56,618 nucleotides of DNA, taken from the UHGV virus genome UHGV-2050067; one strand, written 5' to 3'. A program made the position numbers and the translations under genes. This DNA is from a virus. Below, in pieces: positions 20,072 through 20,087 of the stretch. The notes under the pieces are model-generated. The model saw nothing but the letters and a program-made list of their open reading frames with translations, did not search any database and was not told where the DNA came from. Position 1 is the stretch's first letter, and each line of letters starts with the position of its first letter.

Positions 20072-20087
20072 TGTGACTAGTATCACA
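20072..20087. promoter_or_regulatory. second perfect TGTGA-N6-TCACA palindrome in an intergenic gap
   Basis: tgtgactagtatcaca, about 65 nt upstream of the 20151 start codon. Confidence 0.4.

Follow-up and report, generated by a model that had tools for sequence, protein, structure and literature searches.

What is a perfect TGTGA-N6-TCACA palindrome doing between two genes of a phage operon? The palindrome lies at 20072-20087 of the window, by which we mean the whole 56,618-bp stretch of viral DNA that was analyzed, and a direct reading of the sequence gives TGTGACTAGTATCACA, that is, tgtgactagtatcaca or TGTGActagtaTCACA. It occupies a gap of 99 bp, bounded by the stop of the upstream open reading frame (ORF) at 20051 and the ATG at 20151. 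From the end of the palindrome to that first ATG is 63 nt; a second ATG, in frame with it, stands at 20163 and is the start annotated in relatives. The first-pass annotation had described a perfect palindrome upstream of the 20151 ORF, in a 100-bp gap and about 65 nt before a start codon, and our measurements bear this description out.

An exact search found only two perfect TGTGA-N6-TCACA matches in the 56,618 bp, at 11196 and 20072. Dinucleotide shuffles held a mean of 0.05, and none of 100 shuffles contained two or more; the earlier claim that two perfect sites are unlikely by chance is thus upheld. Both sites are intergenic, in a sequence of which intergenic gaps make up about one tenth. 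When one mismatch was allowed, the window contained seven sites (6077, 11196, 14756, 20072, 25262, 39500, and 41152), compared to 1.86 expected from first-order Markov simulation, and a count of seven was reached in 0 of 300 simulations. Five of the seven lie in intergenic gaps. Two-mismatch sites showed no excess in the window (24 versus 24.6 expected). Hence, the signal is confined to near-perfect sites.

In which phage do these sites reside? The window is 83 to 91% identical to coliphages mEp021, mEp554, mEp010, mEp044, mEp515, mEp013, and MagusPhagus, and its sequence places it in the mEp021 (mEpimmI) group of temperate coliphages. Members of this group have an N-like antiterminator (Gp17), three nut sites, and a CI-like repressor, and they are as common as lambdoid phages in a Mexican human-fecal collection (PMC11893012); the same genome paper does not mention CRP. 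Table 1 lists the features on which our argument draws. The 20072 site belongs to the distal part of the rightward early operon, past Q and ahead of a probable late promoter. This late promoter (TTGTGG-17-TAAAAT, at about 21650 to 21730) precedes a strong terminator (CCCGGCCCCGCGCCGGG plus TTTTTG) and, next, the holin/lysis genes, an arrangement analogous to lambda PR'-tR' and to mEp021 terminator t5. The two arms of a perfect inverted repeat of 8 bp, TTGACTCG ... CGAGTCAA, flank PR at 6889-6926 and stand 22 bp apart; the repeat spans the -35 to about +1 and may relate to the operators of the repressor. Rfam searches (gathering thresholds over the whole window, E-value mode over 19900-20300) and a tRNA/tmRNA scan returned nothing relevant, and the product of 20151-20462 had no Pfam or PHROG match.

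Table 1. Coordinates of the features discussed, in window positions (predicted elements included)
Feature	Position	Strand	Remarks
22-bp CRP-type site AAATGTGACTAGTATCACAATG	20069-20090	.	core 20072-20087, center 20079.5
GTATACGAAATGG, copy of dispersed phage motif GTWTACAAAATGG	20090-20102	+	between CRP-type site and -35
Hairpin CGAAAUGGCAUUGU-UCAG-GCAGCGCCGUUUUG, then U-rich tail	20095-20126	+	overlaps -35 and spacer
Weak -35-like TTGTTC	20105-20110	+	17 bp after 16-bp core; TTGTT invariant in 24 relatives
TGt plus -10-like TATATA	20125-20133	+	hexamer 20128-20133; 17 bp after -35
First gene after module, M(GKI)MKSNKF...	20151-20462	+	start annotated in relatives 20163
Sister cassette: TGTGATTGCGATCACA, 17 bp, TTGTGA, 16 bp, TGAACT	11196-11256	+	
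Third cassette: CGTGATATGGATCACA, 17 bp, TTGTTC, 16 bp, TATACT	14756-14816	+	one-mismatch site
One-mismatch site TGTGACTTGTATCAAA	6077-6092	-	18 bp upstream of PL -35, center about -60.5
One-mismatch site CGTGACAGCGATCACA	41152-41167	+	4 bp after TGgTATGAT extended -10-like element
PR: TTGACT, 17 bp, TATATT	6889 (TTGACT)		consensus scan
PL: TTGACC, 16 bp, TAAACT	6058 (TTGACC), 6031 (TAAACT)	-	consensus scan
CI-like repressor (HTH_3 plus Peptidase_S24)	6118-6765		candidate phage binder
Winged-helix protein	5559-5891		candidate phage binder
Rha/ANT	1534-2202		candidate phage binder
Dam methylase	12471-13010		
NinG	14994-15689		
Q	16504-17226		

The core consensus for host CRP consists of two inverted pentamers, TGTGA and TCACA, with a 6-bp spacer (PMC6301791), and 20072-20087 matches it perfectly. 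On the + strand, 20069-20090 reads AAA-TGTGA-CTAGTA-TCACA-ATG. We scored CRP sites against the consensus only. Compared to the 22-bp extended consensus AAATGTGATCTAGATCACATTT (A/T flanks, T9, A14), the window site has 3/3 of the left flank, 1/3 of the right flank, and A14, with C at position 9; many relatives read AAATGTGATCTA, the complete extended-consensus left half. According to the passage of PMC6301791 that cites Ebright et al. (1989), a consensus CRP site is bound far more tightly than the lac site. Because its core is perfect, we predict that cAMP-CRP would almost certainly bind the 20072 site in vitro; it is the role in vivo that is in doubt.

Has the site been kept in related phages? 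We gathered homologues without regard to the palindrome, by scanning IMG/VR with two downstream anchors (GCCGTTTTGTTATATA and AATGGCATTGTTNNGGCAG), and obtained 24 distinct versions. The left half-site GTGA (G8, T9, G10, A11) was invariant in all 24, and positions 4, 15, and 17 varied: the first T of the core was T or C, and the right half appeared as TCACA, TCGCA, CCGCA, ACGCA, TTACA, or TCACG. The G:C pairs at positions 5 and 7 of each half-site are those contacted directly by CRP (Gunasekera et al. 1992, cited in PMC6301791). They were well kept, G8, G10, and C21 being invariant and C19 present in 23 of 24 distinct relatives. The TCGCA right halves of several relatives presumably resemble the Sxy-dependent CRP-S variant. 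Only 7 of the 24 had a perfect core, and five had three mismatches (CGTGA...CCGCA); strong CRP binding has therefore not been maintained across the family. The window copy and its closest relative (L058, TGTGACTCGTATCACA) retain a strong site.

If CRP binds here, is there a promoter for it to act upon? The -35-like TTGTTC matches consensus at 3/6 positions and the -10-like TATATA at 4/6, the latter preceded by TG. Relatives have either TATATA or TATAAA as the -10-like hexamer, even across a recombination joint; in the window, seventeen bases separate the hexamer from the ATG at 20151. Placing the start 7 nt after the -10 predicts transcription from about 20140, with the center of the site, 20079.5, at -60.5. 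Read from the MG1655 sequence, lac P1 consists of TGTGAGTTAGCTCACT, 17 bp, TTTACA, 18 bp, and TATGTT; the distance from core to -35 is thus 17 bp at both promoters. CRP at lac is centered at -61.5, and -60.5 is the equivalent position where the -35/-10 spacer is 1 bp shorter (PMC6301791). The 20072 site therefore stands at the class I position defined by the lac distance to -35, provided that the -35 and -10 are as predicted. In the interval from the site to the -35, GTATACGAAATGG covers about -50 to -38 and is also the left arm of a hairpin; its A-tract, we presume, resembles a proximal UP-element subsite. What speaks against a promoter is that the -10 lacks the highly conserved T at -7, that the -35 is poor, and that a strict sigma-70 consensus scan called no promoter at the module, either in the window or in mEp554.

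A strong sigma-70-like match next to the site points the other way: TTAACT-18-TATAAT (20061 to 20032, minus strand) scores 10/12, is specific to the window, and is directed into the upstream gene. We rejected it as the target of CRP, since the site center would lie near -54.5, on the wrong helical face, and the element is not conserved and falls outside the conserved module described below.

Is the arrangement peculiar to 20072? The pattern YGTGA-N6-TCRCA-N17-TTGT occurs three times in the window (11196, 14756, and 20072), always on the + strand and always in an intergenic gap, compared to 0.00 expected, and it recurs at homologous places in relatives. At the two perfect sites the core is followed by 17 bp, TTGT, and then CCGTTTTG and a -10-like hexamer, and 14756 has the same frame. 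All three lie at breaks in the rightward operon, where a hairpin overlaps the promoter-like element. The first-pass annotation had proposed a shared regulator for internal operon breaks, and three sites with one frame at such breaks make this a fair proposal.

The two sister cassettes differ in detail. At 11196, a 10-bp stem pairs 11202-11211 with 11230-11239, and RNA structure may matter there as well; the mEp021 homologue reads CGTGA...TCACA and has a better -10 (TAAACT). The 14756 cassette lies immediately upstream of the nutR2 boxA/boxB (about 14835-14870), some 13 nt from boxA. In ten distinct relatives its GTGAT, TCACA, CTTGT, and TATACT are invariant while the stretches between these elements vary; the central 4 to 5 bp, for example, appear as ACGG, GAGC, GCGG, GTGG, ATGG, ACAG, GAGG, or ATAG. 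Such a pattern is the footprint expected of a dimer-bound dyad followed by -35 and -10 elements, and the promoter-like element at 14735-14870 could give the third nut site a promoter of its own. A GGCGCTTTTCGCC hairpin between the 14756 site and its -35 is not conserved in relatives.

Two one-mismatch sites outside these cassettes also have suggestive positions. The 6077 site, conserved as TGTGACTTGCATCAAA in five relatives, suggests that cAMP-CRP may act on the left operon or on the immunity region. We also considered that it might overlap the start of a promoter for the repressor gene (TTGACA at 6047) and set this aside: the -35 of that promoter is unconserved in relatives, whereas PL, on the other strand, is conserved. 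At 41152, the center of the site falls at about +4.5 to +5.5, and the site ends 18 nt before the ATG at 41186. CRP bound at positions like +5 represses by occlusion (PMC6301791), and we predict that 41152 is a repressor-type site. Another palindrome, ACAATAT-AC-ATATTGT (about 41103-41118), lies upstream of it, and both precede the ORF at 41186-41890.

Two further features of these sites deserve mention. GATC (Dam) sequences overlap half-sites of most of the CRP-type sites (TGTGATC or GATCACA), at 11204, 14765, and 41162 and in relatives of the 20072 site; the phage encodes its own Dam methylase. In addition, the most frequent 8-mer in the window, ACAAAATG/CATTTTGT, has 24 copies, usually within GT(A/T)TACAAAATGG, mostly intergenic and often in inverted pairs (14739/14811 and 35504/35537). 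Copies on the + strand include 383, 6035, 6879, 7348, 14739, 14825, 20093, 35504, 48962, 48991, and 53746; those on the - strand include 11227, 14811, 35537, 35566, 39088, 39482, 41080, and 48936. Reversed, as CCATTTTG-TA(T/A)AC(T), the motif forms the spacer end and -10 of PL, of the promoter upstream of nutR2, and of both cassettes; forward, it closely precedes the -35 of PR and that of the 20072 cassette. It may be a promoter-associated element or the site for a phage factor. The dispersed copies were also considered as a set of leftward promoters, an idea that we dropped because no matching -35 elements were found.

We turned to the extent of conservation around 20072. In the ungapped register of the alignment, information content was about 0 to 0.9 bits per column up to 20067, rose to 1.0, 1.5, and 2.0 at 20068-20070, stayed high until about 20137, and then decayed, so that the block ends at the -10-like hexamer. 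Conservation thus runs from the first bases of the 22-bp site to the -10, the extent of a class I promoter. The module of about 70 bp, with the CRP-type site as its left edge, is conserved in the 24 distinct relatives and has a constant order: CRP site, A-rich stretch, TTGTTC, 17-bp spacer, and TGtTATATA. Downstream of it we found three unrelated first genes, encoding MNANAKYP... (41 to 46 aa), MKRWINKE... (about 91 aa), or MKSNKF... (about 99 aa), each with a 20- to 40-nt leader and a ribosome-binding site. Upstream there are at least six different contexts. With flanks and downstream genes so varied, the module appears to travel with downstream genes as a promoter would. A scan of viral contigs anchored on the window-specific TTGACA stretch found only 2 loci.

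The first-pass annotation overlooked that the 20072 site belongs to this mobile module and that the module is absent from mEp021. In mEp021 the junction contains a different 70-bp spacer with a GGGGCC...GGCCCC hairpin; since the type phage does without it, the module is dispensable. In mEp554 the site, TGTGATCTTTATCACA, is flanked by two additional genes, one upstream of it and one, encoding 46 aa, on the other side. The window arrangement seems to descend from the MNANAKYP type through a deletion that joined it, at GGATGGG, to a backbone gene, and its copy has lost the 46-aa gene that the module usually precedes. A caution applies to all of this conservation: the module as a whole is highly conserved and may have spread recently, and its conservation is therefore a poor indicator of constraint.

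What of the hairpin that overlaps the promoter-like element? The window sequence folds at -13.9 kcal/mol (z -3.0) and that of mEp554 at -18.2 kcal/mol (z -6.3), or at -29.8 kcal/mol (z -6.9) with flanks. The tail is GUUUUGUUAUAUAU. GenBank records of mEp554 and mEp010 annotate the hairpin as an ARNold terminator; a simple consensus terminator scan did not call the hairpin region. On the alignment it was 99.7% paired, three pairs varying only to G.U, and because of its G.U pairs the hairpin is specific to the + strand. No compensatory changes were seen for either hairpin at this locus in the alignment of 24. The window is the only one of the 24 variants with C rather than T at 20117 (column 52 of alignment A1). 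C20117 breaks an A-U pair of the terminator-like hairpin, leaving an A.C mismatch, and termination may be weaker in the window phage than in its T-allele relatives. A terminator overlapping the predicted promoter at 20095-20126 is likely on this sequence evidence; it could also be that termination is the only function of that stretch, which would count against a promoter.

Taken together, we are moderately confident that the 20072 site is a CRP site that acts as a class I activator of an internal promoter. The palindrome would be a high-affinity site for host cAMP-CRP, from which a class I promoter of the lac type, just downstream, is activated. Upstream transcripts without antitermination would be prone to terminate at the hairpin. 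Under glucose scarcity, with its high cAMP, CRP at about -60.5 would recruit RNA polymerase via the alpha C-terminal domain, and transcription would restart near 20140 into the small genes at 20151/20163-21641. By this means, the nutritional state of the host would probably switch on a few phage accessory genes.

Must the protein that binds be CRP? The first-pass annotation had looked to phage helix-turn-helix (HTH) proteins. The palindromes might indeed be operators of a phage-encoded DNA-binding protein that resembles CRP in specificity: near-perfect sites occupy five regulatory gaps of one phage, one of them (6077) in the immunity region, and the protein encoded at 5559-5891 has a faint HTH_Crp_2 match (E = 0.009, below the cut-off). 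The CI-like repressor was ruled out as the binder, since its main and necessary target, PR, has no TGTGA-type site in or beside it. Nor do the TGTGA-type sites lie as CI/Cro-type operators do, in copies over the core elements of PR and PL; even the 6077 site lies upstream of the PL -35 and not over the core promoter. The 110-aa protein of 5559-5891 was discarded as a CRP-like candidate, because it is a generic winged helix that matches the N termini of O-like initiators and its putative recognition helix lacks the CRP-like R-E...R; a PDB sequence search with it yielded nothing but a spurious match to a leucine-rich repeat. No CRP/FNR-type protein passed the threshold among the ORFs tested, those of the early region and the left operon. 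CRP-like flanks (AAATGTGATCTA in relatives) and polymerase geometry are, moreover, features that a phage operator would have no reason to share. The suggestion of a phage HTH binder is therefore unsupported and, as an explanation, improbable. Host CRP is the more economical regulator, because the consensus match is perfect, the flanks of relatives match, the geometry is that of CRP and RNA polymerase, and the frame is repeated.

Alternatively, CRP might bind without activating any promoter, the site being a neutral or decaying remnant of the module, a roadblock, or a DNA bend beside a terminator. The missing -7 T and the silent consensus scan fit this idea, as do the decay of the right half-site in many relatives and the status of the window copy as a deletion derivative without the usual 46-aa gene. 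Against it stand the lac-like 17-bp frame to TTGT at three sites (0.00 expected), the conservation of the -35 and -10 at 14756 while the spacers vary, and the persistence of the hexamer as TATATA/TATAAA across the recombination joint; on balance we consider it unlikely. Could the palindrome instead act in RNA, as one stem-loop of a two-hairpin terminator or processing signal, its likeness to a CRP site being incidental? UGUGA...UCACA can pair and does so in the minimum-free-energy structure of mEp554, the neighboring hairpin, a strong one (z -6.3 to -6.9), resembles a terminator and has ARNold annotations, and at 11196 the right half-site lies in the 10-bp stem, with one compensatory change (TCGCA/TGCGA) in two relatives (L062 and L066). 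At 20072, however, 10 of 24 relatives have lost the outer pair and 9 the inner pair, without compensation, and it is the right arm that drifts, the left one being invariant, an asymmetry that fits a protein half-site and not a stem. The window's own minimum-free-energy fold lacks the palindrome stem, no Rfam family matches, and the consensus terminator scan is silent. We regard an RNA role as improbable. Least of all do we credit a chance occurrence of the 10-base palindromic pattern: the motif is short and two-mismatch sites show no excess, but two perfect sites were found where 0.05 were expected, both intergenic, the downstream frame common to the sites had 0.00 expected occurrences, and the 20072 site is kept in relatives.

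Class I activation at 20072 would not need to stand alone. It is conceivable, though we hold it doubtful, that the phage has a set of internal restart points under cAMP-CRP, promoters at 11.2, 14.8, and 20.1 kb that overlap terminators and have one fixed frame from CRP site to -35, together with a CRP-type site at about -60.5 of PL. The 14.8-kb promoter would then fire into nutR2, making entry to N-type antitermination dependent on carbon state, and starvation signaling would tune parts of the early programme as well as the accessory genes transcribed in lysogens. CRP control of a phage promoter is of a known kind and has not yet been reported for the mEp021 group. If the prediction holds, phages of this group read host cAMP directly at several promoters, and carbon availability in the gut would bear on the expression of accessory genes and perhaps also on the left operon and a nut-coupled internal promoter. 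It would also offer an easily tested explanation for the group's three nut sites and add a defined case to the few CRP-controlled phage promoters known. Class I activation is textbook; the gain would be a new instance and a regulatory map of an understudied phage group, not a new principle.

How does the 20072 module compare to known systems? A moron is an extra gene of lambdoid phages that has its own promoter and is inserted between conserved genes. Like morons, the module is polymorphic in presence and absence between conserved neighbors of otherwise collinear genomes (absent from mEp021, present with extra genes in mEp554 and mEp010), and the regulatory block travels with different small genes. 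Unlike morons, it showed no convincing downstream terminator on the coding strand, the mEp554 hairpin after the 46-aa gene scoring only on the opposite strand; in the window it is fused directly to a conserved backbone gene, and its own promoter is a predicted one. The hairpin has the A-tract, stem-loop, and U-rich tail on the coding strand that mark intrinsic terminators in N- or Q-antiterminated operons. It differs in that its stem has moderate G+C content with G.U pairs and its U-tract runs into the -10-like TATATA, and the terminators for which experimental proof is reported in mEp021 do not include the 20095-20126 hairpin.

A precedent is temperate phage T1, in which, according to the passages of PMC6737242 that we consulted, host cAMP-CRP directly controls the pir, dam, and recE promoters. 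In both cases a host metabolic regulator would work on several promoters of one temperate coliphage. In those same passages CRP acts as a repressor in T1 and its sites are not defined, whereas the window phage has three or four predicted sites with activator geometry and one (41152) with repressor geometry. In function, the 20072 site itself resembles class I promoters of the lac type and the promoter portion of a moron. The phage -10, TATATA, lacks the -7 T, a strong hairpin covers the -35 and spacer, and the candidate promoter is predicted only and lies inside a phage operon; lac, for its part, has TCACT as a half-site where the phage core is perfect. What the phage module shares with lac P1 and other class I promoters is the inverted TGTGA/TCACA pair 6 bp apart, the 17 bp from core to -35, and, with lac P1, a weak candidate -35 together with A-rich sequence at the place expected for the alpha C-terminal domain.
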